Positions 1 through 19,251 of a stretch of 64,000 nt of DNA are shown one piece after another. Made by a program: the position numbers and the translations under genes. The DNA lies in NCBI GenBank assembly GCA_030698625.1, contig JAUYMS010000028.1, positions 3,854 through 67,853 of the forward strand, given 5' to 3'. The first letter of the stretch is position 1, and each line of letters starts with the position of its first letter. The notes beneath the pieces are model-generated. The model made no database searches and was not told the DNA's origin. It saw nothing but the letters and a program-made list of their open reading frames with translations. This DNA comes from Candidatus Omnitrophota bacterium. Its GTDB lineage: Bacteria; Omnitrophota; Omnitrophia; Omnitrophales; Aquincolibacteriaceae.

Positions 1-821
1 AGGAAGCGATTGCCACAGTGATTGATAGCGTCCGGAATGCGCTAAAGGGCACATCCCACACCTATGAGCTCCTTGTTGTGGATGATTGCTCGGACGATAA
101 GACCGTTGAGATCGCCGCGTCGAAGGGCGTGAAGGTCATTCGGCGGCGGATGAGAGGCGGTTCTGGATCCTCCCGCCGAACGGGTATCCGGGAATCGCAA
201 GGAGCGATCATCGTCATGCTTGATGCCGACGGCTCTTACGAAGCAGGAGATATTCCGCGGTTACTCGAATATTTCCCGGAGTACGACCAGGTTAATGGCG
301 CTAGAACAAGCGAGCAGGGTACGTTGAAGCTTCTGCGCACGCCGGCGAAGTGGATCATTCGAAAGCTCGCGTGTTATTTAACAAGCCAGAACATACCGGA
401 TTTGAATACCGGACTCAAGGCGTTCAAAAAAGATATCATGAAAAAGTACCTATGGGTACTCCCTGATGGGTTCTCATGCGTCACGACGATGACTCTGGCG
501 TTTCTAGCTAATGGCTTTGCCGTAAAATATATCCCTACGACGTATCACAAGCGGATAGGCAAATCGAAGTTTCATCCGGTAAAAGACACCGCTTCATACC
601 TCAATACAGTTGTTCGTATGGTGATGTACTTCAAACCCTTACGTGTTTTCATGCCCTTGGCTTTCGGGCTGCTTGCCTTTGGGCTGATTAAATCTGTTTT
701 GAGTCTTGTCTATACCTCGACGATTCAGGAGTCGGATATCATTATCATTATGACTGCTGTACTTCTTGGTGCCGTTGGGCTCCTCGCAGATTTGATTGTC
801 GCCTACCAGAATCGTGACTAG
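1..821 (+). CDS. GT2 glycosyltransferase with C-terminal TM helices, GtrB/CsbB-like; 5' end lies upstream of the window
   Basis: Reading frame is open to nt 1 with no upstream stop. Motifs LLVVDDCSDDKT and MLDADGSY(E) are GT2 DxD-type. The hydrophobic C-terminus (MPLAFGLLAFGLI..LGAVGLLADLIV) is typical of polyprenyl-phosphate hexose synthases. Confidence 0.8.
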   Translation, partial: EAIATVIDSVRNALKGTSHTYELLVVDDCSDDKTVEIAASKGVKVIRRRMRGGSGSSRRTGIRESQGAIIVMLDADGSYEAGDIPRLLEYFPEYDQVNGARTSEQGTLKLLRTPAKWIIRKLACYLTSQNIPDLNTGLKAFKKDIMKKYLWVLPDGFSCVTTMTLAFLANGFAVKYIPTTYHKRIGKSKFHPVKDTASYLNTVVRMVMYFKPLRVFMPLAFGLLAFGLIKSVLSLVYTSTIQESDIIIIMTAVLLGAVGLLADLIVAYQNRD

Positions 822-3141
822 ACGCTTCAAAGACTCCTTCGCCATTACTCTCATCATTGCCGCGATCGCGGTGGTGTTCTATGATCTCTTGACCCTGGAT
901 CAGGCCTTTCTTAGCGGGGATCACCGCGAACAGCAATATCCCTGGGCGTTTATATTTCAGGAGGCTCTGAGGGGCGGGCATCTACCGTGGTGGACACGTG
1001 CCATTCATTGCGGATTTCCAATCCTTGCGGAGGGGCAGATCGGTGCTTTTTACCCGGTCAACATCCTGTTCTACGCGCTCTTGCCCATCAAGTGGGCATA
1101 CAACTACAGCATTCTATTCCATTATGTCGTCGGCGGGCTGCTGTTCTACGCATACCTGCGTCGGTCTGGGCGTTCCACAGAAGCATCCTTTATCGCGGCC
1201 GTTATTTTCCTTTTTGGTTCCAGTCAAGGGGGATACTTTTATTATAATTACATCTCTCAGAAAGTAGTTATTTGGCTCCCGCTGACTCTTCTATTGATAG
1301 ATCGCCTGCGTGAGAGGAAGCAGGCGCTGGATGCGTTTCTGCTGTCGTTAGTATTTGCCTTACAGATATTTGGCGGGTATCTCCAAGTGGCGATTTACTC
1401 TGTTCTTTATTCATCAATCTATTTCCTTTTCTTCTGGTTTCGTGAGCGAAGCACGAAAGTGGTCCTCCTTTTTACGGCATCGGGGTTGCTGGCTATCTTT
1501 TTTTCGCTAGTCCAACTGCTGCCGACGCTTGAGCTTGCACTTCTCTCATCGCGAGCCGAGGCAGTGAAAGGGATAGCGTATCTGGGATCCGCTACACCCA
1601 TGGCCTGGCTAACGCTGTTTTTCCCGTCCTGGGATTCCTTCCTTAGGTCGGAGTTTTACGTGGGCATTTTGGGCCTATTTTTCGCAATCATGAGTTTTTC
1701 GGGAGAGAGGGATACAAAGCGTAATTTTTTTGTTTTCGGAGCAGCCCTTTTCTTTCTGCTGGCGTTGGGGCAGTACAGCCCCCTTTATGTGGGTATCGTG
1801 GAGATGACCGGGTTTAATGGGTTTCGCACTCCCATTAAATTTCTTTTTTTTGTGACTTTTTCAATGGGGGTCTTGGCGGCTTATGGCTGGGATTCATTTT
1901 TCCAGGAAACTCGAAGGGTGGGGGCGCTGAAGTCGTATCGTTTCTTTGTGATTGTGGTGGGCGCCATGGTCCTCGCTCCTCCGGTCATTGAGTTTGTCCT
2001 CACGGCTTTCCGAGAGACCTTTCTCCCGGTACTCAAGGATTATGTAACTGACCATATATTCGGAAGGCCGGGCCATCACCATTCGTTGGAACATTATATG
2101 AGTCAGGCGGTTTCTTTCTATGACAGTACAATTGATATGGTGACGCTTAAGAATAAATACACATTGAGTGCGTGGCTGTCGCTGGTAGTTGGTTTGGTGG
2201 TCGCGCTAGGGATGGGCCGAGCCGGTTTTAAATCGGTCCGCGGGGTACAGCTCCTGTGCACGTTACTTCTCTTTGTGGACCTGTTCTTTTATGGTTTTAA
2301 CAGCATCAAGCCGAACTATATGCCGTTCGATAGTATCGGGGACAAAAGGGGAGAATCCGCGATTGTCGACGAAATAAAGAAGGATCCGGGTCTGTTCAGA
2401 ATAAGCGAGGTCTACGGCGAGTTGTGGCATAACGACGTCTACCCGATGGTGCCTAGCTCTAATATGCTCCACGGGATCGATGATGTCGGGGCATACTCTC
2501 CGCTCGCCATGAAGGATTACGGTGCCTTCTTGAAGGGCTGGGCCTATGTCAATGATTCCCTCTCTGTCAATTTTGTGACGGCCGACGGTGTTCTTGCTAA
2601 TCTCGAGCGGCTGAGTTTGTTGAACGTGAAGTATATTCAGTCGACCGTTCCGTTGGAACATGAGGATCTGACTCTCTTGATGACCGACAAGGATGTCTTG
2701 CTGTATAGGAATGATGCGGTCCGCTCGCGAGCGCTATTCGCCCCGGGGATGAGAGGGCCGTCGAGTTTGGACCAGATCATGAAAGCGCGTCTTATCGATA
2801 TTCCGATCGAAAGTTATGAGAATCAGCGGGTCCGCATACAATTCGAGGCCGTAACCGACGGTCTTTTCTTGCTCTCAGACATGGCCTATCCGAATTGGGG
2901 GGTGCGTGTGAACGGTGCGGATTCAGCTGTTCTGAAATGGGCCGGTCTATTTCGCGCCGTGGAGGTTCGGCGGGGCGTAAACGACATCGTCTTTGAGTAC
3001 ACGCCGAGACTTTACCGATCCGTGGGTTTGGCGGCAGCGATGACGGCTATCTTGCTGAGCCTGTTCTTTTTGTCTCGATCAGTTCCTGCTTATACGCGAA
3101 GGTTGACGGCCGAGGTTAAAGGCCGGGGGGCAATCGGATGA
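796..3141 (+). CDS. YfhO-family GT-C membrane glycosyltransferase, 781 aa
   Basis: Many predicted TM helices. N-terminal YfhO-like block 'W...GFPILAEGQIGAFYPVNILFY' with a large C-terminal periplasmic domain. Overlaps the upstream GT2 by 26 nt. Confidence 0.7.
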   Translation: MSPTRIVTRRFKDSFAITLIIAAIAVVFYDLLTLDQAFLSGDHREQQYPWAFIFQEALRGGHLPWWTRAIHCGFPILAEGQIGAFYPVNILFYALLPIKWAYNYSILFHYVVGGLLFYAYLRRSGRSTEASFIAAVIFLFGSSQGGYFYYNYISQKVVIWLPLTLLLIDRLRERKQALDAFLLSLVFALQIFGGYLQVAIYSVLYSSIYFLFFWFRERSTKVVLLFTASGLLAIFFSLVQLLPTLELALLSSRAEAVKGIAYLGSATPMAWLTLFFPSWDSFLRSEFYVGILGLFFAIMSFSGERDTKRNFFVFGAALFFLLALGQYSPLYVGIVEMTGFNGFRTPIKFLFFVTFSMGVLAAYGWDSFFQETRRVGALKSYRFFVIVVGAMVLAPPVIEFVLTAFRETFLPVLKDYVTDHIFGRPGHHHSLEHYMSQAVSFYDSTIDMVTLKNKYTLSAWLSLVVGLVVALGMGRAGFKSVRGVQLLCTLLLFVDLFFYGFNSIKPNYMPFDSIGDKRGESAIVDEIKKDPGLFRISEVYGELWHNDVYPMVPSSNMLHGIDDVGAYSPLAMKDYGAFLKGWAYVNDSLSVNFVTADGVLANLERLSLLNVKYIQSTVPLEHEDLTLLMTDKDVLLYRNDAVRSRALFAPGMRGPSSLDQIMKARLIDIPIESYENQRVRIQFEAVTDGLFLLSDMAYPNWGVRVNGADSAVLKWAGLFRAVEVRRGVNDIVFEYTPRLYRSVGLAAAMTAILLSLFFLSRSVPAYTRRLTAEVKGRGAIG

Positions 3142-3242
3142 AGAATTGGATAATTGTGATTTGGGCGTTCAGCGTAATCCTGGTGTATTGCTGGAATATG
3201 TGGGTGAATAAGGTTGCGGAATCCGTGGGAGGGTTGCTGTGA
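3138..3242 (+). CDS. Candidate 34-aa hydrophobic micro-protein (MKNWIIVIWAFSVILVYCWNMWVNKVAESVGGLL)
   Basis: Found by manual translation. Its ATG overlaps the YfhO stop (ATGA at 3138-3141) and its TGA overlaps the GTG of the next gene (GTGA at 3239-3242). It is a single TM helix. Below the 60-aa cutoff of the ORF track. Confidence 0.3.
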   Translation: MKNWIIVIWAFSVILVYCWNMWVNKVAESVGGLL

Positions 3243-5092
3243 TTCTGTGGTTTGCAATGCCAGCTGTGACCTTCCTGTGTTTTAGTGCGGGGCGCCTGTG
3301 CATCACGAGATGGCGGATTACAATGGAGAAAGACGAGCAGGTGCTTTTCGGGACAGCGGTCGGCATGGGGATGCTTTCTTACGGCGTGCTTCTCCTCGGC
3401 CTTATGGGGCAACTCCGCCTGGTTTCTCTATGCGGATTGCTGATCGTTTTGTTGATTATGAGCGCGATGAACTGGGGACATTCCTGGGCGGCACTGAAAA
3501 GGGCGGTTGCCTTGTGGGAACCTAAAGCTCATCCGTGGAATACGGCTATTTTTTTAGGCAGCGGCCTATGTCTTGCGACTGCCTTTTTGGGCGTTCTTGC
3601 TCCGGAGACGACTAATGATTCTCTATGTTATCACCTCCATTTACCTAAACTTTTTTTAGTCTCGGGCACCATAGGGCCAATCCCGTACGAAGTGAATTCG
3701 TTGTTCCCGTTTTTTATGGAGATGCTTTATACGGCGGGATTGACTGTGGGAGGAGAGGCCCTTTCTAAGTATTTTCATTTCTTGACCGGAATCTTGGCAG
3801 CCATGGCAGTGCTGGTATACGCCCGTCGATACACTTCACGAGTCTATGCCTGGTGGGCGGCGCTGCTGTTTCTAACTACGCCCGGAATTATTAACCAGTT
3901 GTCTACGACTTACGTCGATGTTGGCCTGACATGCTACGGCGTACTTGCGTTGTACGGATACCTGCGTTGGCGTGAGACTCGTGAAACGAGCTGGGCCGTC
4001 CTCGCGGGGATGTGTGCCGGTTTTATGCTGAGCATCAAGTACCTGGCATTGATTGCGTGTCTCGGGATGGGCTTGTTGCTGATCTATGAATTAATTCGAA
4101 GGCGGCAGCTCCTGCGTGGGCTTATCTCGGTCATTCCGTGGTTCTTGATTCCGATGTGTCTGTGTGCGGGCTATTGGTATGTGCGTGCTTATGTGGAGCT
4201 GGGTAACCCCGTCTACCCGTATTTTTATTCGATCTTTAAAGCCGGGGATCCAACGATCCATTACAACGATATCGGTGTTTCGAAGAATATCCTTTCTTTT
4301 GTAGCGGTGCCGTGGCTAATGACCATGCGCCCGGATATTTTTGAAGGTTTTGGCGTGCAGATCGGACCCGGATATTTAGCGTTTCTGCCTTTGGCGTTCA
4401 TGTCGCGGAGCAAGATTCCAAATGCGGGGAGCTTGGCCTTTTTTAGTCTTTTCTATCTCGTGTGCTGGTTTTTCCTGGGGCAGAGCTTGAGATTTCTCTA
4501 CCCCATCCTGCCGGTCCTGGCAATGCTGATGGCGGGTGGTTTTGCCTACAGCTCTTCATTGGGCAATGTAGGGCGTTGGGTTCCGGCCATGGTGGCAGCT
4601 GTGATATGGATTCATGCGGGAGTTGCTTTCTATCATCATCGAAGCATTTATCAAGTCGCGCTGGGGCTTGAATCAGGCACTGAGTATCTCAGCAAGCGTG
4701 AGCGGAGTTTTGACGTCGCGCAATGGGTAAATAAGAACTTGGATGCAGACAGCAGAATCATGAACGTTGACGAGACTCACATGTACCACTTCGAACGGCC
4801 GATTGTACGCGAGATCGTCTATGCCGGCCGTACCGAATATTATGAGGGGGCCGAGTCGGCCGCGGATGTGGTTCGGCGTCTTCTGGCAGATGGTTTTACA
4901 CATATTCTGGACGTGAGTCGTCCGAGCGATGGGAGTCACTCCGGGCAGTCTCCTTTCCGGCTGCCCCGCCTTCTTCGGGAAGGGCAAAAGGAGCTTGCCC
5001 TTCATTTGGATCTCCTCTACACTCATGCGTTTAGAGAGGACTCTGGCGAGGCGGTGCGATACCGCCTGTATTATCTGAATCCCAGTATCTGA
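3239..5092 (+). CDS. PMT/ArnT-like GT-C membrane glycosyltransferase (GT39/GT83-like), 617 aa
   Basis: Polytopic membrane protein with a PMT_2-like hydrophobic architecture and a soluble C-terminal domain. GTG start. An alternative ATG at 3257 is possible. Confidence 0.6.
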   Translation: MILWFAMPAVTFLCFSAGRLCITRWRITMEKDEQVLFGTAVGMGMLSYGVLLLGLMGQLRLVSLCGLLIVLLIMSAMNWGHSWAALKRAVALWEPKAHPWNTAIFLGSGLCLATAFLGVLAPETTNDSLCYHLHLPKLFLVSGTIGPIPYEVNSLFPFFMEMLYTAGLTVGGEALSKYFHFLTGILAAMAVLVYARRYTSRVYAWWAALLFLTTPGIINQLSTTYVDVGLTCYGVLALYGYLRWRETRETSWAVLAGMCAGFMLSIKYLALIACLGMGLLLIYELIRRRQLLRGLISVIPWFLIPMCLCAGYWYVRAYVELGNPVYPYFYSIFKAGDPTIHYNDIGVSKNILSFVAVPWLMTMRPDIFEGFGVQIGPGYLAFLPLAFMSRSKIPNAGSLAFFSLFYLVCWFFLGQSLRFLYPILPVLAMLMAGGFAYSSSLGNVGRWVPAMVAAVIWIHAGVAFYHHRSIYQVALGLESGTEYLSKRERSFDVAQWVNKNLDADSRIMNVDETHMYHFERPIVREIVYAGRTEYYEGAESAADVVRRLLADGFTHILDVSRPSDGSHSGQSPFRLPRLLREGQKELALHLDLLYTHAFREDSGEAVRYRLYYLNPSI

Positions 5093-5100
5093 AAGGACTT

Positions 5101-6405
5101 ATGAAGGTTGCACTTATTGATCTGAAGGAGAGCCGTAACGGCTGTAATAATAAGGACAAGGCAGGCGGTTTCGGCAACAAGTCACACGGCGAAGATCTGA
5201 TCTCTCGCATTTATGCTTATTTTAAGCATAGTCAAGTCGATGTTCCCGTAATGCACTTTGGCTATATGGCCGCTATCTTTCGCCAGCATGGGCATACAGT
5301 CAAATTCTACGATGCAGAGCCCGAGGACGAGGAACTGGTCATCATGGCTTCCTCGATCGTTGGTTATGACGAAGAACTCTCGTTTGCTCGCCGCATCCAA
5401 AAGCCCGGCAGGAAGATCGGTTTCATCAACGCATTTGCCACTGTGAAGCCGGAGATCTTTCTCAATGCGTCAGACTTTGTGATTAAGGGGGAACCGGAGC
5501 AGGCCACGATTGAAATTGCCAAAGGGAACGTGAAGCCAGAGGGGGTGATTGACAGCGCCTTGATCTTTGACCTCGAGAGTCTTCCGTTTCCGGACTGGGA
5601 TGGTTTTCCTGTTTCCCGGTACGGCTATTACCCGGTCTTGAAGAAGAAACCGCTTATTTCTATCCTCACGAGCCGGGGCTGTTCGTTTGACTGCAGCTAT
5701 TGTCCGTATATGGTCACTCAGACGGAAAGGTGGCGCAGGCGTTCCGCCAAGCATGTCTGCGATGAAATTGAATACCTTCAAAAGAAGTACAAGGTGCGCA
5801 GCCTCGTTTTCCGCGACATCATGTACACCCAAAGCAAACAGCGCGCCATTCAGATTTCTGAGGAGATCATTCGGCGCGGAATTCGCGTCGAGTGGAGTTG
5901 TGAAACTCGAGCCGATTGCTTGGAAGAGGATACACTGAGACTACTCCACCGGTCGGGGCTGCGAGTTATTCACTTAGGGATCGAGTCGCCAGAGGATCAG
6001 ATCGTCAAAGATTCGGGACGCATCCCAATCAAAGAGATGCAACAGGAGAAGATCGTGCGGCTGTGCGAGAAGATCGGAATCGACGTTATCGGATTTTATA
6101 TCCTCGGCTTTGTCGCGGACACTCAGAAATCCATGCGGCGAACGATTGATTACGCCAAACATTTGAATACGCCTCTGGCGCAGTTCGATGTCATGACGCC
6201 GTATCCCGGTACAAAATTCTATGATGAGATGAGGGACCGTATCTTGAGCCACAATTGGAAGGAATACACAACCCATCATCCGGTCGTTCGACTGGATAAT
6301 GTCTCTCACGAAGAAGTGCTCGACTTCAAGAATCGCGCTTACCGGGAGTATTATTTTCGGTCGAGTTGGATGCTCAAGCACGGACTGAAGACCGTCCTCG
6401 GATAA
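5101..6405 (+). CDS. B12-binding domain radical SAM protein
   Basis: CxxxCxxC radical SAM cluster motif 'SRGCSFDCSYCPY'. N-terminal Rossmann-like B12-binding region. The fold is class B radical SAM. Confidence 0.8.
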   Translation: MKVALIDLKESRNGCNNKDKAGGFGNKSHGEDLISRIYAYFKHSQVDVPVMHFGYMAAIFRQHGHTVKFYDAEPEDEELVIMASSIVGYDEELSFARRIQKPGRKIGFINAFATVKPEIFLNASDFVIKGEPEQATIEIAKGNVKPEGVIDSALIFDLESLPFPDWDGFPVSRYGYYPVLKKKPLISILTSRGCSFDCSYCPYMVTQTERWRRRSAKHVCDEIEYLQKKYKVRSLVFRDIMYTQSKQRAIQISEEIIRRGIRVEWSCETRADCLEEDTLRLLHRSGLRVIHLGIESPEDQIVKDSGRIPIKEMQQEKIVRLCEKIGIDVIGFYILGFVADTQKSMRRTIDYAKHLNTPLAQFDVMTPYPGTKFYDEMRDRILSHNWKEYTTHHPVVRLDNVSHEEVLDFKNRAYREYYFRSSWMLKHGLKTVLG

Positions 6406-6419
6406 GCGGAGAGATCACC

Positions 6420-7322
6420 ATGATTGCAATCACCGGAGCCACAGGCTTCATCGGTGTGCATCTTATCAAGGCCCTGCAGGAAAGGGGGGTGGCGTTTCGC
6501 TGCCTCGTCCGCGCTAATTCCACTAGGGTGAGCCAAGTAAAGGCTCTGACCGAGCATGTCGTCCAGGTCGACTACAGTCGACCCGAGACTTTGCGTAAAG
6601 CGTTTACGGGGTGCGATGTCCTTGTACATGCCTTGGGTCTCATTAACGGGAGTGAGGAAGAACTGCGCGAGGCCAATATTGAGTGCCCGCGCAGAGTGTT
6701 TGAGGCCGCAACGAAGGCCTCGGTCGAGCGCGTTGTTTTTATCAGCTCCGTAGCCGCTTTGAGACGGCATGGACCCTATGGCGTGACCAAGTCCGAGGGT
6801 GAGGATGTGCTGAGGAGTTCCGGGATTCCCTACATCATTCTACGTCCGGCATACGTTTATGGGGTGGGTGACGAAAACAATACGGCTCTGATGCTGCGAA
6901 CCTTAAAACGATTCCCGGTGATCCCTGTACTGGGAGGCGGGCAGTTCCGGTTACAGCCCGTGTACGTCGACGACGTCTGCGATCTGATCGTTCAAGCGCT
7001 CAGATGCAAAACCTGGAATCGGGCGTACACGGTTGCAGGACCGGAACAGATTACATTGTGGTCCATGCTGAAGTTGCTTGCCGGAGGTCTCGGGGTGAGT
7101 CGACTTCTTGTACCGATCCCGCTAAAACCGGTTCAGGCGTTGATGCGTTTTTATCTTCGCTTTTTTCCCGAGACCAAGCTCCCGGCCAAGCAGATACTCG
7201 AGTTGGATAAACACGAGGCCTTTGATATCTCAGAGACACAATCGAATTTTAATTTTAAGCCCCGGCCTTTTCGCGAAGGGGTTGAGGGGATGTTTACCGG
7301 CGACCTATGTGCGGCATTGTAG
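6420..7322 (+). CDS. NAD(P)-binding NmrA/NDUFA9-like SDR, sugar epimerase/reductase family
   Basis: Motif 'IAITGATGFIGVHLIKAL' GxxGxxG. Start chosen at ATG 6420 with upstream GGAGAG. Confidence 0.7.
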   Translation: MIAITGATGFIGVHLIKALQERGVAFRCLVRANSTRVSQVKALTEHVVQVDYSRPETLRKAFTGCDVLVHALGLINGSEEELREANIECPRRVFEAATKASVERVVFISSVAALRRHGPYGVTKSEGEDVLRSSGIPYIILRPAYVYGVGDENNTALMLRTLKRFPVIPVLGGGQFRLQPVYVDDVCDLIVQALRCKTWNRAYTVAGPEQITLWSMLKLLAGGLGVSRLLVPIPLKPVQALMRFYLRFFPETKLPAKQILELDKHEAFDISETQSNFNFKPRPFREGVEGMFTGDLCAAL

Positions 7323-9223
7323 GCTATTTTACTCCTGATCCCAAACAGGCCGACGGCTCTTTTTTGGCCGCGATGAATGAAACTCTAGTGCACCGGGGCC
7401 CCGATGCTTCGGGGTTGCTTCGACGACCGCATGCGGGTTTGGCGATGCGGCGTTTGAAGGTCATTGATCTCGAGACCGGAGACCAGCCGATTTCAAGCGA
7501 ATCCGGATCCTGCCATATTGTTTTCAACGGGGAGATATACAATTTCCGGGAGTTGCGGGACCGTCTTGAAAAGAAAGGGCATCATTTCCGAACTCGGTCT
7601 GATACGGAGGTTTTGCTACACGCCTACGTTGAGAAACGCGAAAAGTGTCTCGATGATCTCAATGGCATGTTTGCCTTTGCCGTCTACGATGAGAAAGATA
7701 AGAGCCTATTTGTGGCTCGAGACCGGCTTGGAATTAAGCCGCTCTTTTATGCGGAGACAGACAAAGGACTGGTCTTTGCTTCCGAGCTGAAGGCCTTTCT
7801 GGCTTGCCCGTGGATTTCCTGTGAACTTGATCTGCAAGCGCTTTCCCATTTTCTGAGCTTGAATTATTTGCCCCCTCCGTGGACACCCCTTAAGGGAATA
7901 AGACAATTGCTGCCGGGTCACTGGATGCGTGTTCAGGCCGACAAAGTTGAGGTGAAATCCTACTGGGAGATTCCGCTTGAAGAGAACCGTGACATCTCGG
8001 AGCGGGAGGCCGTCACAGAAATTACACGCCTTTTGCATCGCTCCATCGAAAGGCAGTTGATTGCCGATGTGCCCGTAGGCGCTTTCCTCAGCGGGGGGAT
8101 GGACTCAAGCACTCTGGTTGCTCTCATTAAAGAGCATCGGCACGATAAGATTAAAACCTTTTCGGTGGGCTTTGAAGACCCGGTCTATGACGAGACGCCT
8201 TATGCGAGGGAAGTGGCAAAGTACTTTGGCACCGAGCACTATGAAATGCTCTGTAAACCAGAAGATGTGAGCCGCTCTTTATCCCGCATTGCCTTTCAGG
8301 CGGACAACCTGTTGGCGGACCAGGCAGCCCTGCCTCTGTATCATGTCTCGCAATTGGCTAAACAGCATGTGACGGTCGCCTTGTCGGGTGATGGGGGTGA
8401 CGAATTATTTGTCGGATACCCGACATTTCATGCTGACCATTATCACTCTTTGTATACTCGTTTGCCGCGGTTCTTGCGGAAGAATGTGATCGAGGCCGGA
8501 ATACGGGCCCTGCCGGCCTCGACAGGAAAGCTCAGTTGGGACTATCGCGCCAAGAAATTTATTCAGGCGGGCGACATGTCTCGAGAGAAGGCGCATTACT
8601 GGTGGCGAACTATTTTTACGACCGACGAAAAGGAAAGCATTCTCACCGAGGCAGCGTGGCGTGCCATCCCCGACAAAGATGCCTTCGGGCTTTATGCCGA
8701 ATACTTTAACAGATCGACGGGCTCCAGTTTTGTGAATCGCGCTCTTTATGCGGACCAAAAGGTATGGCTGCCCGGCAATAACCTTTGTAAGGTAGATACC
8801 ATGTCGATGGCCCATGGGTTGGAAGCGCGTGTTCCCTTCCTGGATCACGAGTTGGTCGAAACCGTCGCGCGCCTGCCGGCCGAGATGAAGTTTCGCGGCC
8901 GCATATTGAAGTACCTGCTCAAGAAAGCGATGAAGGGCCGCCTACCCGAATCAATTATCAAGAGACGGAAGGCCGGATGGCATATGCCCATTGCCGGCTG
9001 GTTGCGGGGGCCCATGGCGGGTTATGCTCAGGATTTACTCCTACAGCAGAAGACGCCGGTCCATGGGCTATTTAAACAAGATGCGCTTGCGGCATTGATT
9101 CGAGAACATCGTGTCGGCAGGCATAATCACGCCTTCAAGATATGGGGACTTCTGGTTTTGAATCATTGGTCGGGCCAGTTCTTAAGCAAGCAGCAGGTCG
9201 GGCAGGCGGTGAGTGCGTCATGA
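7307..9223 (+). CDS. asnB: Asparagine synthase (glutamine-hydrolysing)-like amidotransferase
   Basis: N-terminal 'MCGIVGYF' with the class II glutamine amidotransferase Cys2. Central PP-loop 'SGGMDSS'. Length 638 aa. Confidence 0.85.
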   Translation: MCGIVGYFTPDPKQADGSFLAAMNETLVHRGPDASGLLRRPHAGLAMRRLKVIDLETGDQPISSESGSCHIVFNGEIYNFRELRDRLEKKGHHFRTRSDTEVLLHAYVEKREKCLDDLNGMFAFAVYDEKDKSLFVARDRLGIKPLFYAETDKGLVFASELKAFLACPWISCELDLQALSHFLSLNYLPPPWTPLKGIRQLLPGHWMRVQADKVEVKSYWEIPLEENRDISEREAVTEITRLLHRSIERQLIADVPVGAFLSGGMDSSTLVALIKEHRHDKIKTFSVGFEDPVYDETPYAREVAKYFGTEHYEMLCKPEDVSRSLSRIAFQADNLLADQAALPLYHVSQLAKQHVTVALSGDGGDELFVGYPTFHADHYHSLYTRLPRFLRKNVIEAGIRALPASTGKLSWDYRAKKFIQAGDMSREKAHYWWRTIFTTDEKESILTEAAWRAIPDKDAFGLYAEYFNRSTGSSFVNRALYADQKVWLPGNNLCKVDTMSMAHGLEARVPFLDHELVETVARLPAEMKFRGRILKYLLKKAMKGRLPESIIKRRKAGWHMPIAGWLRGPMAGYAQDLLLQQKTPVHGLFKQDALAALIREHRVGRHNHAFKIWGLLVLNHWSGQFLSKQQVGQAVSAS

Positions 9224-10143
9224 GTGAGACTCAGATGCAGACGGGGCGCATGGACTGGGTCCGGGAGTATTTGAAGGAGCTGCCTCATTGCCCGCTGTGC
9301 CATGGCCGTGGCGCAACGCCGTTGCTGGAATTAGGACCCTTGCGAGTTTGGCGCTGCAAAGATTGCAGATTGATGTATTTGAACCCATGTCTTTTTCCCG
9401 ACGAACAGAAAATGATTTTTTCCTCACCCGATTTCCTAACCCGTGTCAGCGAGTTCTTCGCGGATTATTATCAAGGCGAAACTTGGAACACTCCGCGGAC
9501 CCTAGCGGTTTATAACGGCGTGATGCGGGAGTTGGCCTCTTTGTTTCCGGCGAAAGGGAAAATTGTCGACATCGGGTGCGGCCGCGGCGCTTTTTTGAAG
9601 GCGGCGAAGGCCGGCGGGTGGACCGCTAGCGGAGTCGAACCCAACTTTGATGATGCTGAACACTTGCGGCGTGATCATGATATTGAAGTATTCCAAGGCG
9701 ACTTTTTTGAAGCCGCGCTTCCTGAGTCAGGATTCGATGTGGTTTCCATGTGGGATCTCATAGAGCATGTCCCCGAGCCGGGTGATTGGGTAAGGCGCTG
9801 TGCCAAACTACTCAGGCCGGGCGGCGCTCTCTTGCTGGCTACTCCGAATCATTTTAGCTTCTTAGATTTTCTGGCGTTCACGTCGTATCGTCTTAGCTTC
9901 GGAAATTTTTCTTACGCTTTGGAGAAGCTTTATACCGTCGATCATACCCTTTACCTGACACAGCATACCTTAAGGGACCTCTTTGAGCGCTCGGGGTTTA
10001 CCGTAGTTAAGACAATTAAGGTCAATACGGATCTGAGCCGCTATGCGATGGGCCCTTTGTTTCGCGGTATTGCGGAGGGATTGCTGGCGGTTGGCGGCCT
10101 GATGCAGCTTCACAATCGCGTGATAATGATTGCTATTAAATGA
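9220..10143 (+). CDS. Zn-ribbon class I SAM methyltransferase (paralog 1 of 3)
   Basis: N-terminal 'CPLCHG...CKDCRLMYLNP' four-Cys ribbon. SAM motif I 'VDIGCGRGAF'. Start at ATG 9220 (ATGA overlap with asnB). Confidence 0.8.
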   Translation: MSETQMQTGRMDWVREYLKELPHCPLCHGRGATPLLELGPLRVWRCKDCRLMYLNPCLFPDEQKMIFSSPDFLTRVSEFFADYYQGETWNTPRTLAVYNGVMRELASLFPAKGKIVDIGCGRGAFLKAAKAGGWTASGVEPNFDDAEHLRRDHDIEVFQGDFFEAALPESGFDVVSMWDLIEHVPEPGDWVRRCAKLLRPGGALLLATPNHFSFLDFLAFTSYRLSFGNFSYALEKLYTVDHTLYLTQHTLRDLFERSGFTVVKTIKVNTDLSRYAMGPLFRGIAEGLLAVGGLMQLHNRVIMIAIK

Positions 10144-10164
10144 TCAGTTTTCGGTCGGGTGAGG

Positions 10165-10193
10165 TTGACTTTTTTTCAGCCCGCTGTTAGAGT
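10165..10193 (+). promoter_or_regulatory. Sigma70-like promoter TTGACT-N17-TAGAGT
   Basis: Read in the 59-bp gap 10144..10202 upstream of the epimerase gene. Confidence 0.4.
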
Positions 10194-10202
10194 GTTGCCC
10201 TT

Positions 10203-11231
10203 ATGCCCCAACAATCACAAGCCAATCAGCAGACTTTAACCCCCGAACAGACCTACTTCACAGGCAAGCAGATCCTTGTAACCGGAGGCGCTGGGTTCCT
10301 GGGTAGTTTTCTATCTGAGGATCTTGTTGCCTGCGGTGCCAAAGTCACGATTTTTGACCGCTTCACTCACGGGCGAAGCCGTGTGCGGGGTCTCGAGAGC
10401 CATGAGTCGGTGGAGGTCATTCAGGGCAATGTGCAAAATTACAAAGAGCTTGTGCGTGCCGTTCGGGGTAAGGACTTAATCTGGCATTTGGCGGGTAACA
10501 CGGATATTCCTGCGGGACTTCGCGACACGAGTCTTGATCTGAAGGACGGCATCATTGCGACGCAAAATGTGCTGGAGGCCATGCGTGAGGCCGGTGTGAT
10601 GAAACTAGCTTTTCCTTCCTCGGGTGCCATCTACGGAGAACAGACATCCGGATTGCGCCGTGAAGATAAGGGCCCGACCCTCCCGATATCCCTTTACGGT
10701 GCGGGCAAGGTTTCCTGCGAAGCGTTTATAAGCGCTTATGCGCACTTATTTGATATTCAAGCATGGATCTTCCGCTTCGGCAATGTTATCAGCGGACGCA
10801 TTACGCACGGCGCTATCCGTGATTTTATCCGTAAGCTGCGTGCGAATCCGAAAGAGCTGGAAGTTCTTGGTGACGGGACTCAGACGAAGAGCTATCTCCT
10901 GGCGGAGGAATGTATCGAGGGTATGCGTTATACCATAGCGCACACAAACATTGAGGACGGCGCGGGCTTCTGCCACCTCTACAATCTCGGTGCTCCCGAC
11001 GAAACGGCTGTGCTCGACATTGCAAAGATCGTTATCGGGGAAATGGGCCTGCCGGGCTGCACGATCAAACTGAAGGGCGGAGAGCGCGGGTGGAGAGGCG
11101 ATCAAGCCAAGATTGCGCTCGACATCTCAAAGCTCCGCGCTTTCGGATGGGAACCCAAACACTCCTCCGATGATGCCGTGCGGATTTCCGTACGCCGGAT
11201 GATTGAGCAGAAGGGGATTGAGGATGAATAA
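10203..11231 (+). CDS. NAD-dependent sugar epimerase/dehydratase (extended SDR)
   Basis: 'ILVTGGAGFLGSFL' motif and YxxxK 'YGAGK'. Confidence 0.8.
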   Translation: MPQQSQANQQTLTPEQTYFTGKQILVTGGAGFLGSFLSEDLVACGAKVTIFDRFTHGRSRVRGLESHESVEVIQGNVQNYKELVRAVRGKDLIWHLAGNTDIPAGLRDTSLDLKDGIIATQNVLEAMREAGVMKLAFPSSGAIYGEQTSGLRREDKGPTLPISLYGAGKVSCEAFISAYAHLFDIQAWIFRFGNVISGRITHGAIRDFIRKLRANPKELEVLGDGTQTKSYLLAEECIEGMRYTIAHTNIEDGAGFCHLYNLGAPDETAVLDIAKIVIGEMGLPGCTIKLKGGERGWRGDQAKIALDISKLRAFGWEPKHSSDDAVRISVRRMIEQKGIEDE

Positions 11232-12543
11232 GGTCTGTGTCGCAGGTCTGTGGCATTTGGGGCTCGTAAGCGCGGCGACGCTCGCGGAGCTGGGTTTTCG
11301 TGTGACAGGCTTCGAGGCCGATACTCCGAAAATTGAGAATTTGCGTCAGGGAAAGCTCCCGCTTTATGAGCCCGGGTTGGAGGAGCTCGTCAGCGCTCAC
11401 CTTAAGAAGTCTTCGCTCCAGTTCGAAGATGACCCTGTCCGGGCCGTGAGCCAGGCGCAGGTCGTACTGATTACCTTTGATACTCCGGTTGATGACGAAG
11501 ACCGCGTGGACCTATCTGAGTTAGACAGCACCATCACACTAATCACGCCGCATCTGGATAAGAATGCGGTTGTGATTATTCATAGTCAGGTTCCCGTCGG
11601 TACGTCCGAGCGATGGCAAGTTGAGATCGACACAAAACGCCCCGGGGCGAGTATTGACGTCGTGTGTAGTCCCGAAAATTTGAGGTTGGGATGCGCCTTG
11701 GAACTTTACAAGAAGCCCGACATGATTGTCGTGGGAAGTGATTCGGAGCGCGCTCGAAAGAAGGCTGCGACATTCTTCGCTTTTTTTGATGCTCAAAAGA
11801 TTTATGTTTCACGGCGTACGGCTGAAATGGCTAAGCATGCCCTGAATGTTTTTTTTGCGACGAGTATCAGTTTTGCCAATCAGCTCGGAAACCTGTGCGA
11901 TCAAGTGGGCGCTGACGGCATGGAGATCGCGAGGATCTTGAAAGCAGACGGCCGTATCGGAAAACGGGCACAGGTAAGGCCGGGGCTGGGATTTGCCGGG
12001 GCTACCCTTGCGCGGGACCTTCGAGCCTTGCAGCGCTTGGGACATGAGGTCGGCGAGCCAACGCCGTTGATTGATGCGGTTCTTGACATTAACCAGCGCC
12101 AGACAGAGCGTGTGGTCCGGCTGATAGCACAGTATTTTGAAGGGGATATGCGGGGGAAGGTGGTCACGGTTCTGGGCTTAACGTACAAGCCGGGGACCAG
12201 TACGTTGAGGCGTTCTGCGGCACTCGAAATTATCCAGAAATTGCAGAACTTGGGAGCCGAAGTGCGGGCTCACGATCCGAAGGCTGACATTGGCGAGTAC
12301 TCGGGTAAGGTCCCTTTTGAATTTATCCGGGATCCCTATGAAGCGGTAGCCGGCGCTCATGCAATCTTGCTCACGACGGAATGGCCGGAGTATCGAGATC
12401 TCGACTTCGCAAAGATTCGCGAACGCATGAGCGGGGCTGTGATTCTTGATGCAAAAAACCATCTGGATGCAAAAAAAATCCGTGAGAAGGGTTTCGTCTA
12501 CCTGGAACTAGGGCGAGGGCAGTTAGCCGGGGAGAAAGTATGA
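11224..12543 (+). CDS. UDP-sugar 6-dehydrogenase, UDP-glucose/GDP-mannose dehydrogenase family
   Basis: N-terminal 'KVCVAGLWHLGLVSAATLAELGF' Rossmann fold. Central and C-terminal dehydrogenase domains. Start at ATG 11224. Confidence 0.8.
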   Translation: MNKVCVAGLWHLGLVSAATLAELGFRVTGFEADTPKIENLRQGKLPLYEPGLEELVSAHLKKSSLQFEDDPVRAVSQAQVVLITFDTPVDDEDRVDLSELDSTITLITPHLDKNAVVIIHSQVPVGTSERWQVEIDTKRPGASIDVVCSPENLRLGCALELYKKPDMIVVGSDSERARKKAATFFAFFDAQKIYVSRRTAEMAKHALNVFFATSISFANQLGNLCDQVGADGMEIARILKADGRIGKRAQVRPGLGFAGATLARDLRALQRLGHEVGEPTPLIDAVLDINQRQTERVVRLIAQYFEGDMRGKVVTVLGLTYKPGTSTLRRSAALEIIQKLQNLGAEVRAHDPKADIGEYSGKVPFEFIRDPYEAVAGAHAILLTTEWPEYRDLDFAKIRERMSGAVILDAKNHLDAKKIREKGFVYLELGRGQLAGEKV

Positions 12544-13559
12544 TGAGGGTCGGAATTGTCGGAGCGGGATTGCAGACCAAACGCCGTGCGCCGGTGTTTT
12601 CTCAGTCGAAAGACGCGGAGCTTGTGGTTATCTCAGCGGAGCATGAAGAGCACGCGAAGGCCATGGCGGAACAATTTAATTGCGAGTTTGCGCGGGGATG
12701 GGATTGGGTGGGCGAACGCGACGATTTGGATGTGATCCTAGTGTGCACGCCTCCCGATTTACATGAGAAAATCTCGATATTGGCGATGCGCACGGGCAAG
12801 CACGTGCTGTGTGAAAAGCCGCTTGCGCGCACGTTGGAAGAATGCCGGAACATGATAGCCGTCTCGAAGGAGACGGGCAAGGTGTTGAAATGTGGTTTTA
12901 ACCACCGCCATCACCCTGCCGTCTTAGAAGCCAAGCGGCAAGTTGATGCGGGCAAGATCGGCAAGCCGCTTTTTGCGCGAAGCCGCTACGGGATTATCGG
13001 TATGCCGGGCCGCGAGAAGGAATGGCGTGCGGATCCGGCGCGTGCCAGCGGCGGCCATCTGATGGAGCAGGGGATTCACGCGGTGGATTTGTCCCGGTGG
13101 TTCCTCGGAGATTTCCAGGAAGTGGCCTGTTTTCGGGAGACTCAGTATTGGTCCTTCGGTGACCTCGAAGACAACGCTTTCATGATGCTGAGAGGAAACG
13201 AGGGGCGCATGGCGTCGATCCATACTTCGCTCCTGCAATGGAAGAATCTGTTTTCCCTCGAGATCTACGGCGAAGAAGGGTATTTTGAGATCGAGGGGCT
13301 TGGGGGCTCTTATGGCACCGAAAAACTGCACTATTGTCCGAAGCACTATGACAGGCCCTTTGAGGTGCAGACGACCGAGTTCCGCGGAGGAGATACGTCG
13401 TGGCAGTTGGAGTGGGACGAATTTGTTGCCGCCATCAACGAAGATCGTGAACCCTTAGGGAGCGCGTTTGACGGGATGGAGGCGATGCGTCTTGTTTTTG
13501 AAGGTTATCGCTTTTCGGATGAACAGTCAGCGCGTCGGTCGGCGAACCCTGTTAGCTAG
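12540..13559 (+). CDS. Gfo/Idh/MocA-family oxidoreductase, WbpB-like candidate UDP-sugar 3-dehydrogenase
   Basis: 'MRVGIVGAGLQ' N-terminal Rossmann fold and conserved 'EKP' motif 'HVLCEKPLA'. Confidence 0.75.
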   Translation: MMRVGIVGAGLQTKRRAPVFSQSKDAELVVISAEHEEHAKAMAEQFNCEFARGWDWVGERDDLDVILVCTPPDLHEKISILAMRTGKHVLCEKPLARTLEECRNMIAVSKETGKVLKCGFNHRHHPAVLEAKRQVDAGKIGKPLFARSRYGIIGMPGREKEWRADPARASGGHLMEQGIHAVDLSRWFLGDFQEVACFRETQYWSFGDLEDNAFMMLRGNEGRMASIHTSLLQWKNLFSLEIYGEEGYFEIEGLGGSYGTEKLHYCPKHYDRPFEVQTTEFRGGDTSWQLEWDEFVAAINEDREPLGSAFDGMEAMRLVFEGYRFSDEQSARRSANPVS

Positions 13560-14168
13560 TCTTCTCTTTTCAATTGCGGCGATCTTCCGAGCCGCCTCCC
13601 AAAGATCCTTCACGATGTAGTCGGGTTTTGCGCCTTTTTTTTCCATGAGCCTCAACCAATCCAACTTAACTTGACCGACTAATAGGGTCGTGCAGCCGGC
13701 TCGCTTTCCTGCCTGGATATCATTGATGCCGTCCCCAACCATATAGGAAGTCCTTAGGTCGATATTAAGATCGCGTGCCGCTTGTTTCAAAAGCCCCGGT
13801 TTAGGTTTGCGGCAGGGGCAATTCCTACGCAGGCGCCCATAACCTTTGGTAGGATGACAGACGCAGTAATAGATTCCGTCGAGGGCGGCCCCCTCTTTCT
13901 TGAGCAGTCGCACCATCTTTCGGGTGATATCGTTCAAGGCTTTTTCGGTGAAATGCCGCATGGCCAATCCGGGTTGGTTTGAGGCGATGACGGCCTTTAG
14001 ACCGATACAGTTTAGTCGCCGTACGGCTTTAGCTGCGTGCGGCAGGAGCCGGAATTGTTTTGCGGTGAAGGGTGTCTCTATGATTCCCATCTCTTCATGG
14101 AAGATAATATCGTTGATGACGCCGTCACGATCGAGAAAAACCGCACTCGACTTCTGGTTAACTGACAT
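13527..14168 (-). CDS. gmhB: D-glycero-D-manno-heptose 1,7-bisphosphate phosphatase (HAD, histidinol-phosphatase-like)
   Basis: 'VFLDRDGVIN' HAD motif I. Zn-binding 'CVCHP..CPCRKPKPG' typical of GmhB. Start chosen at the internal Met (MSVNQKS). Confidence 0.75.
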   Translation of the reverse strand: MSVNQKSSAVFLDRDGVINDIIFHEEMGIIETPFTAKQFRLLPHAAKAVRRLNCIGLKAVIASNQPGLAMRHFTEKALNDITRKMVRLLKKEGAALDGIYYCVCHPTKGYGRLRRNCPCRKPKPGLLKQAARDLNIDLRTSYMVGDGINDIQAGKRAGCTTLLVGQVKLDWLRLMEKKGAKPDYIVKDLWEAARKIAAIEKRRLANRVRRPTR

Positions 14169-14880
14169 GCGTTCTCCTGCTCGTGCGCAGAAGCTTCTCC
14201 CGCACATTGGCAAGTCCGTCGGGTGTGCCGACGTCGAGAGGAGGTTCGGCGATCGGGTAGGCCTGCAGGCCGCCCTCTGCGGCAATTTTCGCGAGTACAT
14301 CGACTTCGAGCGAAAACTTCACGTCGGATTCGAAATAGTCAAACAGGGCCTTCGAGAACAGCTTGATCCCGCTATCGACATAATCCTTGCCGGCCGGGTT
14401 TATATAATCGTAGGCCTCAATGATGCGGCGATCCTCGGACAATTTTACATTGCTGCGAAATAAGGGCGGCGAGTTCCTCCAGCATGCGAGCAAGCCGATA
14501 AAACGAGACGCATCAAACCGGTCATCAAAATCGCGGTAATCAAGTGTGAGATAATTATCACCGCTGACGACAAAGAATCGGTCATGTAAAAGCCCTCGTG
14601 CCTGCTTGATTGCCCCGCCGGTGCCGAGCAGCTCCTTTTCAAAGGAATATTGAATCTTATAGCCCCACGCTGATCCGTCAGCAAAATACTCTTGGATTTT
14701 GTCGGCTCGGTGGCCGACGCATAGCACGAAATTCTTTATGCCGTAACTGCCTAAATGATCAAGCAGCCACTCGAGAAAAGGCTTATCGCCGACGGGCACC
14801 ATAGGTTTCGGCAGGTCCCGGGTAATGTCGCCGAGTCGGGTACCCAATCCGCCGGCTAAGATTAAGGCTTGCTCAGTCAC
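14158..14880 (-). CDS. hddC: D-glycero-alpha-D-manno-heptose 1-phosphate guanylyltransferase-like sugar nucleotidyltransferase
   Basis: 'LILAGGLGTRLGDITRDLPKPMVPV' nucleotidyltransferase signature. Sits in an operon with gmhA, gmhB and hddA. Confidence 0.7.
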   Translation of the reverse strand: MTEQALILAGGLGTRLGDITRDLPKPMVPVGDKPFLEWLLDHLGSYGIKNFVLCVGHRADKIQEYFADGSAWGYKIQYSFEKELLGTGGAIKQARGLLHDRFFVVSGDNYLTLDYRDFDDRFDASRFIGLLACWRNSPPLFRSNVKLSEDRRIIEAYDYINPAGKDYVDSGIKLFSKALFDYFESDVKFSLEVDVLAKIAAEGGLQAYPIAEPPLDVGTPDGLANVREKLLRTSRRTHVS

Positions 14881-14883
14881 GTG

Positions 14884-15534
14884 CTAGGCGAGAGTTTTCG
14901 TTCCCTGCCAAGCGTTGAGAAACTCCTGGATGGTCAACTCTGTTTGGGGGTGATAAGCCAGGGCAGGGAAGAATTTGTAGGGAACTGTGATAATGTCGGC
15001 GCCCGCCAAGGCGGCGTCATTAATCTGGGTGAGCAGGCGGATGCTCCCCACGATAATTTTGGTGGTGAAATTACTTTGTTTGAACAGCTGTGCCGACTGA
15101 CGGATGACATCCAACCCGTCATGGCCCAGATCCGAGATGCGGGAATAGAAGATGCTTGCATAAGTTGCACCCGCACTGGCCGCCAACATCGCCTGATTGA
15201 CTGTCATGATGGCCGTGACATTTGTCTTGATTCCCTTATTCTTGAGAACGCTTGCAGCTTCAAGGCCGGCTGGCGACATCGGCAGCTTGACGACAATGTG
15301 TTTGCTCCACGCCGCAAGCTTCTGGGCTTCGATAATCATTTCGGCGGGGTCATTGGTCGTCACTTCAACGCTCAGAGGTCCGGAGACGATCTCAAGAATC
15401 TCCTCGACACGCGTGCGCAGATCAACACCCTCCTTGGCGAAGATCTTGGGGTTGGTGGTCACGCCGCGTATAACACCCCAGCGTGCGATTTCGCGTATCT
15501 CGTCAATATTGGCCGTATCGATAAAAAGTTCCAT
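14884..15534 (-). CDS. tal: Transaldolase / fructose-6-phosphate aldolase family (short type)
   Basis: 'MELFIDTANIDEIREI..GVTTNP' motif. About 216 aa, matching short transaldolases. Confidence 0.8.
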   Translation of the reverse strand: MELFIDTANIDEIREIARWGVIRGVTTNPKIFAKEGVDLRTRVEEILEIVSGPLSVEVTTNDPAEMIIEAQKLAAWSKHIVVKLPMSPAGLEAASVLKNKGIKTNVTAIMTVNQAMLAASAGATYASIFYSRISDLGHDGLDVIRQSAQLFKQSNFTTKIIVGSIRLLTQINDAALAGADIITVPYKFFPALAYHPQTELTIQEFLNAWQGTKTLA

Positions 15535-15552
15535 GGGTCTCTCCTTTAGGGG

Positions 15553-16194: not shown

Positions 16195-16226
16195 TCGGTT
16201 TCTCCTTTAATTTACGCCTACTGGTT

Positions 16227-17252: not shown

Positions 17253-17401
17253 ATGGCTGGGTATTATATCGGCGCGATTCGGAGGTTGTAAAGCGGTTAT
17301 TTTTGTAATCCATGTAGGCACAATATCTTACGATGATGCTGTAAGTTATTTAAAACAATGCGCTTAGCTCGATATAAAGCTGAATGGCCCCTTAATAAGG
17401 G

Positions 17402-19164: not shown

Positions 19165-19251
19165 TGGATGCCGCCCGAAAAGCGGTATTAGATCCGGTCG
19201 TGGAGCGTTAAGCTTCCCTCACAGACCCCCCTAGAATTTCTAGCGACACGT

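Follow-up and report, generated by a model that had tools for sequence, protein, structure and literature searches.

The question raised by the DNA described here is why two different membrane glycosyltransferases should follow a single putative lipid-sugar synthase in one coupled run of genes, with a reading frame of only 34 residues between them. The window, by which we mean the whole stretch of 64,000 nucleotides analysed (contig JAUYMS010000028.1 of a Candidatus Omnitrophota bacterium), opens with four co-directional plus-strand open reading frames (ORFs) at 1-5092, namely the 3′ part of a glycosyltransferase family 2 (GT2) gene, a YfhO-family gene, a micro-ORF and an ArnT-like gene, of which the second and fourth encode glycosyltransferases of the GT-C type. 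Together they probably form a variant of the three-component periplasmic glycosylation system, with two different GT-Cs and a micro-protein. The micro-ORF, given only a passing mention in the preliminary description of this DNA, is indeed present and has turned out to be its most distinctive feature, being a real conserved gene and the genetic partner of the GT-C downstream of it.

Gene layout and boundaries

The first gene (1-821) encodes a putative polyprenyl-phosphate glycosyltransferase of the GtrB/CsbB/ArnC/AglJ type, of which the window holds the 3′ part, 272 of 308 codons, in frame 3; this frame is open at the window edge and closes with a TAG at 819-821. It overlaps by 8 nt (GTGACTAG, read as cGTGacTAG) with the gene for the 775-residue YfhO-family enzyme, which runs from a GTG at 814 to 3141 with its start as in NCBI P0001. 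The micro-ORF at 3138-3242, whose product is the 34-residue MKNWIIVIWAFSVILVYCWNMWVNKVAESVGGLL, has its ATG at 3138 on the YfhO stop (ATGA overlap), and its own TGA lies on the GTG at 3239 (GTGA overlap) that opens the gene for the 617-residue ArnT/PMT_2-like GT-C (3239-5092, start as in NCBI P0121). The four-gene layout and its coupling are thus as the preliminary description had them, with overlaps at all three junctions. What has to be given up is the view of this "Module A" as a self-contained unit, given that seven further coupled genes lie 3′ and a GT2, a flippase-like protein and a third GT-C just 5′. Past 5092 the coupled run goes on, after a gap of 8 nt, with a gene that begins at 5101, and the dense co-directional genes continue up to 13559, with a strand switch beyond.

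Scans for promoters and terminators gave match counts no higher than those of shuffled controls, and an Rfam scan and a repeat scan of 1-14000 gave no meaningful match. The top terminator-like match is an 8-bp GC-rich hairpin (AGGCGGTG-cga-TACCGCCT) at 5049-5067, 23 nt 5′ of the GT-C stop codon; it falls within the coding sequence of the GT-C, has a poor T-tail and was rejected as a unit boundary. Two antisense ORFs in 1-5092 (132 and 117 aa) were set aside, both being wholly within conserved sense genes.

Two GT-C enzymes of different families

Both large membrane proteins are GT-C enzymes as judged by hidden Markov model (HMM) matches and predicted fold, and the matches to the three Pfam families named for them beforehand, PF09586, PF13231 and PF02366, all exceed their cut-offs. 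The YfhO-family protein matches PF09586 with 101.2 bits (cut-off 28.5) over residues 14-644 and profile positions 1-589 of 835, and the same family is precomputed on its homologues. AlphaFold models of the two GT-Cs were built from alignments of 32 and 34 homologues. The YfhO model (pLDDT 90.4, pTM 0.89) consists of a helical membrane core from residue 1 to about 497, a beta-rich domain at about 500-730 and one last helix, 732-774, whose tail is basic, and a Foldseek search of the PDB returned, in this order, ArnT 5f15, PglB, AftD, STT3 and AftA. A near-invariant motif, L-S-G-D36-H-x2-Q-x2-P-W, and an invariant GFPxxAEGQ mark the family. The protein is basic at both ends (MTRRFK at the N-terminus, four K/R in the 18 residues of the C-terminal tail), which would place the GDH loop bearing D36 and the beta-rich domain outside. 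The YfhO of B. subtilis has a large outside domain between its last two helices (PMC5836110). The earlier assignment to YfhO is therefore well founded, as the protein has the architecture of B. subtilis YfhO and its gene comes after a csbB-like GT2, an order also found in the csbB-yfhO operon.

A related protein of 612 aa, P0074 (ENA ERZ27296333), deserves mention beside this enzyme. Its first 340 residues correspond to the YfhO membrane core, being 43% identical to residues 35-365 here, and its C-terminal part matches LptC/LptD_N; the source contig is 2958 bp long, and the protein is either a natural fusion of YfhO to a lipopolysaccharide (LPS)-transport domain or an assembly chimera.

The second GT-C had been labelled PMT/ArnT-like, and of this label the ArnT/PMT_2-like part stands, while the part that would make it a true protein O-mannosyltransferase does not. 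It matches PF02366 with 39.6 bits (cut-off 22.7) and PF13231 with 29.1 bits (cut-off 26.1), the former alignment being confined to residues 177-319 (profile positions 86-224 of 245), and the Pfam scan found no MIR domain in it. Its model (pLDDT 91.6, pTM 0.92) has ArnT (5ezm/5f15) as the top Foldseek match in the PDB, with an E-value of 4e-9 and TM scores of 0.55 (query) and 0.62 (target) over about 580 columns. STT3, ALG9/ALG12, Pmt4, PglB, AglB, Emb, AftD and PimE follow at lower ranks, and the Pmt4 and Pmt1/2 structures rank 16th or below with TM scores of 0.28-0.40 against 0.55 for ArnT. The partial PMT match, the lack of a MIR domain in that scan and the low rank of the PMT structures argue for an ArnT-like enzyme rather than a PMT. 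No ArnT model of NCBIfam matches it, and its sole NCBIfam match is Agl23 at 16.9 bits (cut-off 126). The model shows about four extra N-terminal helices before the canonical first GT-C helix and ends in an alpha/beta domain at about 480-617. In the loop after the helix at 99-120, residues P122, D127, L129 and Y131 are invariant.

A crude hydropathy script, with overlapping segments, was used for counting loop charges alone and not as a topology prediction. By these counts the loop on the N-terminal side of helix 101-122 of the ArnT-like GT-C holds three K/R, whereas the D127 loop holds one K/R and five D/E. For both enzymes, a position of the conserved Asp loop outside the cytoplasm is consistent with the charge distribution and with the GT-C fold. 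The earlier proposal that the GT-Cs act at the membrane's outer face thus agrees with the HMM matches, the predicted folds and the Asp loops predicted to be outside.

A probable lipid-sugar synthase of family GT2

The full GT2 is found in P0201, a protein of 308 aa and 100% identity whose gene starts 105 nt before the window. It matches PF00535 with 79.7 bits (cut-off 23.3) and ends in two hydrophobic membrane helices, at residues ~251-306 of the full protein; GtlA and CsbB likewise end in two membrane helices (PMC5836110). Its best NCBIfam models are AglJ, the nearest, followed by Dol-P-hexose transferase, ArnC, PpgS and PgfS, nearly all of them polyprenyl-phosphate glycosyltransferases. More than 120 homologue clusters lie at 65-80% identity, and several homologues of 65-78% identity bear the JGI name "polyisoprenyl-phosphate glycosyltransferase." The proposal that it is of the polyprenyl-phosphate-sugar synthase type is backed by these NCBIfam matches, all below their equivalog cut-offs, and by the JGI names, and we keep it as a prediction from sequence.

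A conserved micro-protein in front of the ArnT-like enzyme

The micro-protein has one hydrophobic helix, and its family shows a basic N-terminus followed by the pattern W-x4-W-x2-V-x4-5-Y, within a length of 31-44 residues. One-helix ORFs of this length lie between YfhO and the GT-C in 14 related loci, and in six loci the ATGA overlap with the YfhO stop is kept. An HMM built from the micro-ORF sequences revealed extra copies exactly 5′ of GT-C genes that are parted from YfhO (L029, L035, L040), and by inspection the micro-ORF also stands 5′ of the GT-C in L017, L020, L016 and L007, including loci in which the GT-C comes before YfhO. When metagenomes were scanned independently with the GT-C as seed, 15 of 16 matches to the micro-protein HMM (E<1) were immediately 5′ of the GT-C and on the same strand, and these metagenome loci include GT-Cs that are merely 29-34% identical and have no YfhO within 6 kb. 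Altogether the micro-ORF is found immediately 5′ of the ArnT-like GT-C clade in more than 30 loci, some without YfhO, and the peptide pattern is conserved across loci whose GT-Cs are 29-50% identical and whose gene contexts differ.

Routine annotation has passed over this gene. Neither Pfam nor NCBIfam has a match for it, it was left uncalled by the gene finders in the source, and the copy in the window is not in a collection of 15 billion proteins, in which two orthologues are present, unnamed. Among 200 homologues there is no case of the micro-protein being fused to YfhO or to the GT-C.

The first helix of the GT-C, which is followed by the basic loop GRLCITRWRIT, appears to run from outside to inside. 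The basic N-terminus of the micro-protein suggests an N-in/C-out orientation that would complement this helix, and, counted with the next helices, the micro-protein would bring to four the helices that precede the canonical first GT-C helix. It may accordingly be a split-off N-terminal helix that acts as a subunit of the GT-C.

Conservation of the gene trio

Conservation was followed in a YfhO-clade set of 36 distinct loci, mostly from Omnitrophota metagenome-assembled genomes (MAGs), with some labelled Planctomycetia or other. An ArnT-like orthologue is present in 25 of the 36 and, among the loci with enough flanking DNA to judge, is absent only in L019, L021 and L022. A GT2 orthologue (48-79% identical) lies within 10 kb in 15 loci, and the GT2 is directly 5′ of YfhO in L005, L010, L011, L012 and L027 as it is in the window. 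The linkage of GT2, YfhO and GT-C is found again in the independent metagenome loci L089-L093 and L099, and even the rearranged locus L016 retains GT2, SDR, AsnB, micro-ORF, GT-C, radical SAM and YfhO (the abbreviated products are described below). The trio of GT2, YfhO and ArnT-like GT-C, for which the preliminary description had proposed a synteny search, thus recurs across Omnitrophota.

Genes downstream to 13559

The plus-strand run continues with a B12-binding-type radical S-adenosylmethionine (SAM) protein of 434 aa (5101-6405; PF04055, 47.8 bits), an NAD-dependent short-chain dehydrogenase/reductase (SDR) of the epimerase/dehydratase/reductase kind with 300 aa (6420-7322, start per the L001 gene call; PF01370, 97 bits) and a glutamine-dependent AsnB-like amidotransferase of 638 aa (7307-9223; PF00733, 349 bits). 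The AsnB-like protein reaches 585 bits against TIGR03108, the XrtA/PEP-CTERM amidotransferase model, with a cut-off of 817. The nearest NCBIfam models of the radical SAM protein and the SDR are HpnJ (188 bits, cut-off 578) and HpnA (91 bits, cut-off 368); a hopanoid reading was rejected on account of these far sub-cut-off scores and of the lack of hopanoid core genes. Then come a SAM-dependent methyltransferase (9220-10143), a second SDR (10203-11231), a nucleotide-sugar 6-dehydrogenase (11224-12543; 338 bits to the NCBIfam NDP-sugar dehydrogenase, cut-off 190, and 318 to the TuaD-like model) and a Gfo/MocA oxidoreductase (12540-13559), all four assigned by Pfam. ATGA or 8-nt overlaps join the genes of this 9220-13559 run, which together point to the supply of a uronic-acid-type sugar.

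This block is itself conserved. The radical SAM gene, 63-77% identical, is directly 3′ of the GT-C in L002, L005, L008, L010, L013, L027 and L089-L094; radical SAM, SDR and AsnB follow the GT-C in L005, L008 and L013, and likewise in L010, L027 and L089-L094 as far as the contigs reach, with the AsnB-like gene kept in the same block at 51-62% identity. The radical SAM protein (63-77%) and the GT2 (48-80%) are more conserved than the GT-Cs (29-54%). In L002, whose YfhO is 53% identical, the full run from YfhO to Gfo/MocA is collinear, and the 9220-13559 part of this order is shared with L002-L004.

Other B12-binding radical SAM genes occur in these loci. A 511-aa type stands directly 5′ of YfhO in several Omnitrophota loci (L002:8432-9967, L008:7316-8890, L089:1948-3528); a further one lies at 60033-61937 of the window, and others adjoin YfhO in the Scalindua MAGs L021 and L022.

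The surrounding glycan locus

Upstream DNA was taken from the Logan contig L088, on which the window position equals the L088 position minus 3852. At L088:238-3606, that is 3.6-0.25 kb before the window, are genes for a 238-aa GT2 of the polyprenyl-phosphate type, a 313-aa MprF-type flippase-like protein and a 574-aa GT-C (PMT/GT87/PMT_2), and this third GT-C directly precedes the GT2 of the four-gene module. The three upstream genes together form a second set of putative synthase, flippase and GT-C. The flippase-like protein, 1.9-2.9 kb before the window start, belongs to PF03706 and matches TIGR00374 with 82 bits (cut-off 43), and in L007 a similar gene adjoins the micro-ORF and GT-C of that locus. 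A Wzx flippase gene is present at 38350-39882.

A third set lies at 17441-20841, where a 246-aa GT2 of the Dol-P-hexose/PgfS/PpgS type, a methyltransferase and a 529-aa PMT_2 GT-C are encoded; in L005, L006 and L007 the YfhO module is bordered by GT2/PMT_2 pairs of this kind. On the minus strand at 40879-43368 is a second YfhO-like gene of 828 aa, 21% identical to the first, in which the PF09586 match covers only the C-terminal 70 residues. GDSL/SGNH-family genes stand on both sides of it (39839-44683), and a weaker third GDSL-like gene is at 54612-55868. The five GT-Cs of the region are at most 21% identical to one another, and the three GT2s of the polyprenyl-phosphate transferase type 26-29%.

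Sugar-nucleotide genes make up much of the remainder. The stretch at 21249-36425 encodes a pathway of the pseudaminic/legionaminic-acid type, with PseB-, PseC-, PseG/H- and NeuB-like proteins and a cytidylyltransferase, together with an FkbH-like protein, a MaoC-dehydratase/SDR fusion, a class-III aminotransferase, HisH/HisF-like proteins and a WbuX amidotransferase (314 bits, above its cut-off), a combination that hints at a nonulosonic acid bearing acetamidino and unusual N-acyl groups. Genes of the GDP-heptose type (HAD phosphatase, nucleotidyltransferase, transaldolase, SIS isomerase and GHMP kinase) occupy 13527-17321 on the minus strand, and those of the ADP-heptose type (epimerase, PfkB-kinase/adenylyltransferase fusion and SIS isomerase) 44896-48071 on the plus strand; ADP-heptose is used for the LPS core. 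At 49099-52338 an E1 dehydrogenase alpha-like and a transketolase-like beta subunit surround an FAD oxidoreductase; a thiamine-dependent step is, to our knowledge, unusual in sugar tailoring. The ORFs at 36422-38347 (641 aa) and 57533-58576 (347 aa) have no Pfam match, and the former has no NCBIfam match and no hydrophobic helix either. The preliminary description had set the module in place of a classic O-antigen assembly line, a claim that does not hold in this form, as the module sits within a large locus of sugar-nucleotide genes and Wzx and so complements conventional assembly.

Proposed mechanism and acceptor

In the mechanism that we propose, the membrane-tethered GT2 would use a nucleotide sugar to load polyprenyl phosphate with one sugar at the cytoplasmic face, as its family predicts. 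Synthesis or tailoring of the donor is probably the task of the dehydrogenase, SDRs, AsnB-like protein, radical SAM protein and methyltransferase; the combination of a dehydrogenase with an amidotransferase suggests that this sugar may be a derivative of a uronic acid or a uronamide. The lipid-linked sugar would then be flipped outward, the weakest step of the scheme, for which the MprF-type flippase-like protein and the Wzx are candidates. On the periplasmic side the YfhO and ArnT-like enzymes, each with a conserved Asp in its first outside loop, are predicted to use the lipid-linked donor and to add the sugar to an envelope acceptor, and the micro-protein, whose linkage to the ArnT-like gene is an observation, would serve this enzyme as a separate membrane subunit. 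One synthase is probably common to the two unrelated GT-Cs, by analogy with GttA, which works with GtlB and GttB (PMC8035078), and with RgtE, which works with RgtD and RgtF on lipid A (PMC7663294).

The acceptor is somewhat more likely to be an LPS-type glycolipid or an envelope polysaccharide or glycan than a protein. The protein acceptor allowed for in the preliminary description found no support, and the weak hints there are point to an LPS-type glycolipid or glycan. The lean to LPS comes from ArnT as the top structure, the gene order in L098, the LptC-like join in P0074 and the ADP-heptose-type genes in the window. In L098 (1541-7839) a distant micro-ORF/GT-C pair, with a GT-C 31% identical and no YfhO nearby, comes directly after GT2, GT2, GT4 and GT9 heptosyltransferase genes, an arrangement that resembles an LPS-core gene set.

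A bolder form of the proposal, which we offer as speculation and would not expect to hold in all its parts, is that the 34-aa protein belongs to a hitherto undescribed family whose members are obligate subunits, of a single helix each, in a bacterial clade of ArnT-like GT-Cs. They would amount to an N-terminal helix permanently detached from its enzyme and to a bacterial counterpart of Ost4. In Omnitrophota they would be joined by YfhO, one synthase and the B12-radical-SAM/SDR/amidotransferase set, and would help to install an unusual, radical-SAM-modified uronamide-type sugar periplasmically on LPS core or lipid A.

Comparison with known systems

The closest precedents are the CsbB/GtcA/YfhO and GtlA/GtcA/GtlB systems of Firmicutes (PMC5836110, PMC8035078), in which a GT2 with a two-helix tail likewise lies directly 5′ of a co-oriented YfhO GT-C. 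The outside domain of YfhO between its last two helices, the predicted polyprenyl-phosphate-sugar chemistry and a GT2 able to serve two GT-Cs are further points in common. The present locus differs in its Omnitrophota host with genes of the LPS-core-heptose kind, no teichoic-acid genes being seen in the window, in having no GtcA/GtrA flippase, in carrying a second, unrelated GT-C and a micro-protein within the same coupled unit, in the linked radical SAM/SDR/AsnB tailoring set, and in a PF09586 match that covers the membrane core only.

To the ArnC/ArnT and RgtE/RgtA-D,F systems (PMC7663294) the locus is linked by ArnT as the best solved structure for the second GT-C, nearly over its full length, by an ArnC-type GT2 as the predicted supplier of polyprenyl-phosphate sugar, the Rgt synthase likewise feeding several ArnT-like enzymes, and by a sugar 6-dehydrogenase, comparable to Ugd for Arn and Rgt. 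Unlike ArnC/ArnT, it shows no equivalog-level match to either protein and no ArnA/B/D or ArnE/F homologues were seen, and its enzyme has about four extra N-terminal helices and a partner micro-protein. The GtrA/GtrB/Gtr(type) and GT136 pentofuranose systems (PMC11127046) share with it a glycosylation, here predicted, that is extracytoplasmic and post-polymerisation in a diderm, the synthase/flippase/GT-C logic and auxiliary sugar-modifying genes. Their GT-C families are different, however, and here there are two GT-Cs per synthase and a candidate flippase of the PF03706 or Wzx type instead of GtrA/MATE.

For the micro-protein the comparison is with eukaryotes. Ost4 is a 36-residue single-helix subunit of the oligosaccharyltransferase, packed against the GT-C subunit STT3, and the fold matches of the ArnT-like GT-C include the OST complexes 6ezn and 7oci. 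Both are single-pass membrane proteins of about 35 residues that go with a GT-C, the association here being suggested by gene order, but there is no sequence relationship, and the enzyme here is a bacterial GT-C of the monosaccharide type, not an oligosaccharyltransferase.

Alternative explanations

Several observations weigh against a synthase/flippase/GT-C system as we have drawn it. In L002, L008, L089 and L092 it is a B12-radical SAM gene and not the GT2 that precedes YfhO, so the GT2-YfhO adjacency is not universal. The GT2 reaches the equivalog cut-off of no NCBIfam model (ArnC 67 bits against 529). The genes at 1-13559 of the window include no GtrA/GtcA-type or other dedicated small flippase, and the part given to the PF03706 protein is an analogy with HexF, which is itself not required in its own system (PMC10128005). 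The subunit role and the topology of the micro-protein are drawn from gene order and charge. Finally, profile searches of PDB sequences gave no GT-C match for either enzyme (E<=10 for one profile); catalytic residues are therefore not mappable on ArnT by sequence, and we infer a catalytic role of D36 and D127 from conservation and position, not from superposition.

Among the other explanations, the GT-Cs of the region might build or extend a glycan stepwise from polyprenyl-phosphate monosaccharides instead of decorating a finished polymer, much as MptA/B, Emb and Aft enzymes build mycobacterial mannan and arabinan. The five divergent GT-Cs and three polyprenyl-phosphate-type GT2s of the region, the up to four contiguous GT-Cs plus GT2s in L006 and L007, and the presence of AftD, AftA and Emb among the structural matches would all suit this idea. 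We nevertheless think it unlikely: Wzx and the many cytoplasmic sugar-nucleotide pathways typify conventional repeat-unit assembly, several independent additions of side branches would explain the count of GT-Cs just as well, and no lipid-anchored primer pathway was identified. It is a little less probable again that the PMT-like enzyme, and perhaps YfhO, glycosylates secreted, pilus or S-layer proteins at Ser/Thr. PMTs of actinobacteria and eukaryotes do transfer a lipid-linked sugar to protein Ser/Thr, PF02366 is above its cut-off, Pmt4 and Pmt1/2 are among the fold matches, and AglJ, the nearest NCBIfam model of the GT2, belongs to archaeal S-layer glycosylation. Set against this, the PMT match is limited to 177-319 with no MIR domain, the PMT structures with TM scores of 0.28-0.40 fall well under ArnT (0.55), STT3 and ALG, and no gene for a candidate acceptor protein is conserved beside the module.

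A deflationary account would make the micro-ORF merely a coupling ORF or a by-product of the overlap and one GT-C-like protein non-catalytic, for instance an Agl23-like flippase-associated factor. That the micro-ORF lacks a family match and was left uncalled in the source, and that Agl23, at 16.9 against 126 bits, is the sole and very weak NCBIfam match of the ArnT-like protein, is what such an account can draw on. Conservation of the micro-peptide sequence across divergent GT-C loci and contexts makes it highly improbable, as does the invariance of acidic and aromatic residues in each GT-C's first outside loop. The reading of the locus as a three-component periplasmic glycosylation system with two GT-Cs and a micro-protein is the one that we retain.

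Implications

What is known of YfhO and PMT_2 enzymes comes chiefly from the glycosylation of teichoic acids and cell-wall polysaccharides in Gram-positive bacteria. The logic of a lipid-sugar synthase combined with a membrane transferase is already known from such systems, and is here extended to Omnitrophota together with a micro-protein. For this uncultured lineage the module is conserved phylum-wide and provides a gene set for studies of envelope glycans, made up of GT2, YfhO, micro-protein, ArnT-like GT-C, radical SAM, SDR and AsnB. The new and most original element is the micro-protein, a conserved partner of an ArnT-like GT-C clade that routine annotation has missed; if it is a subunit of the GT-C, it would matter for any expression or structure work on this clade.

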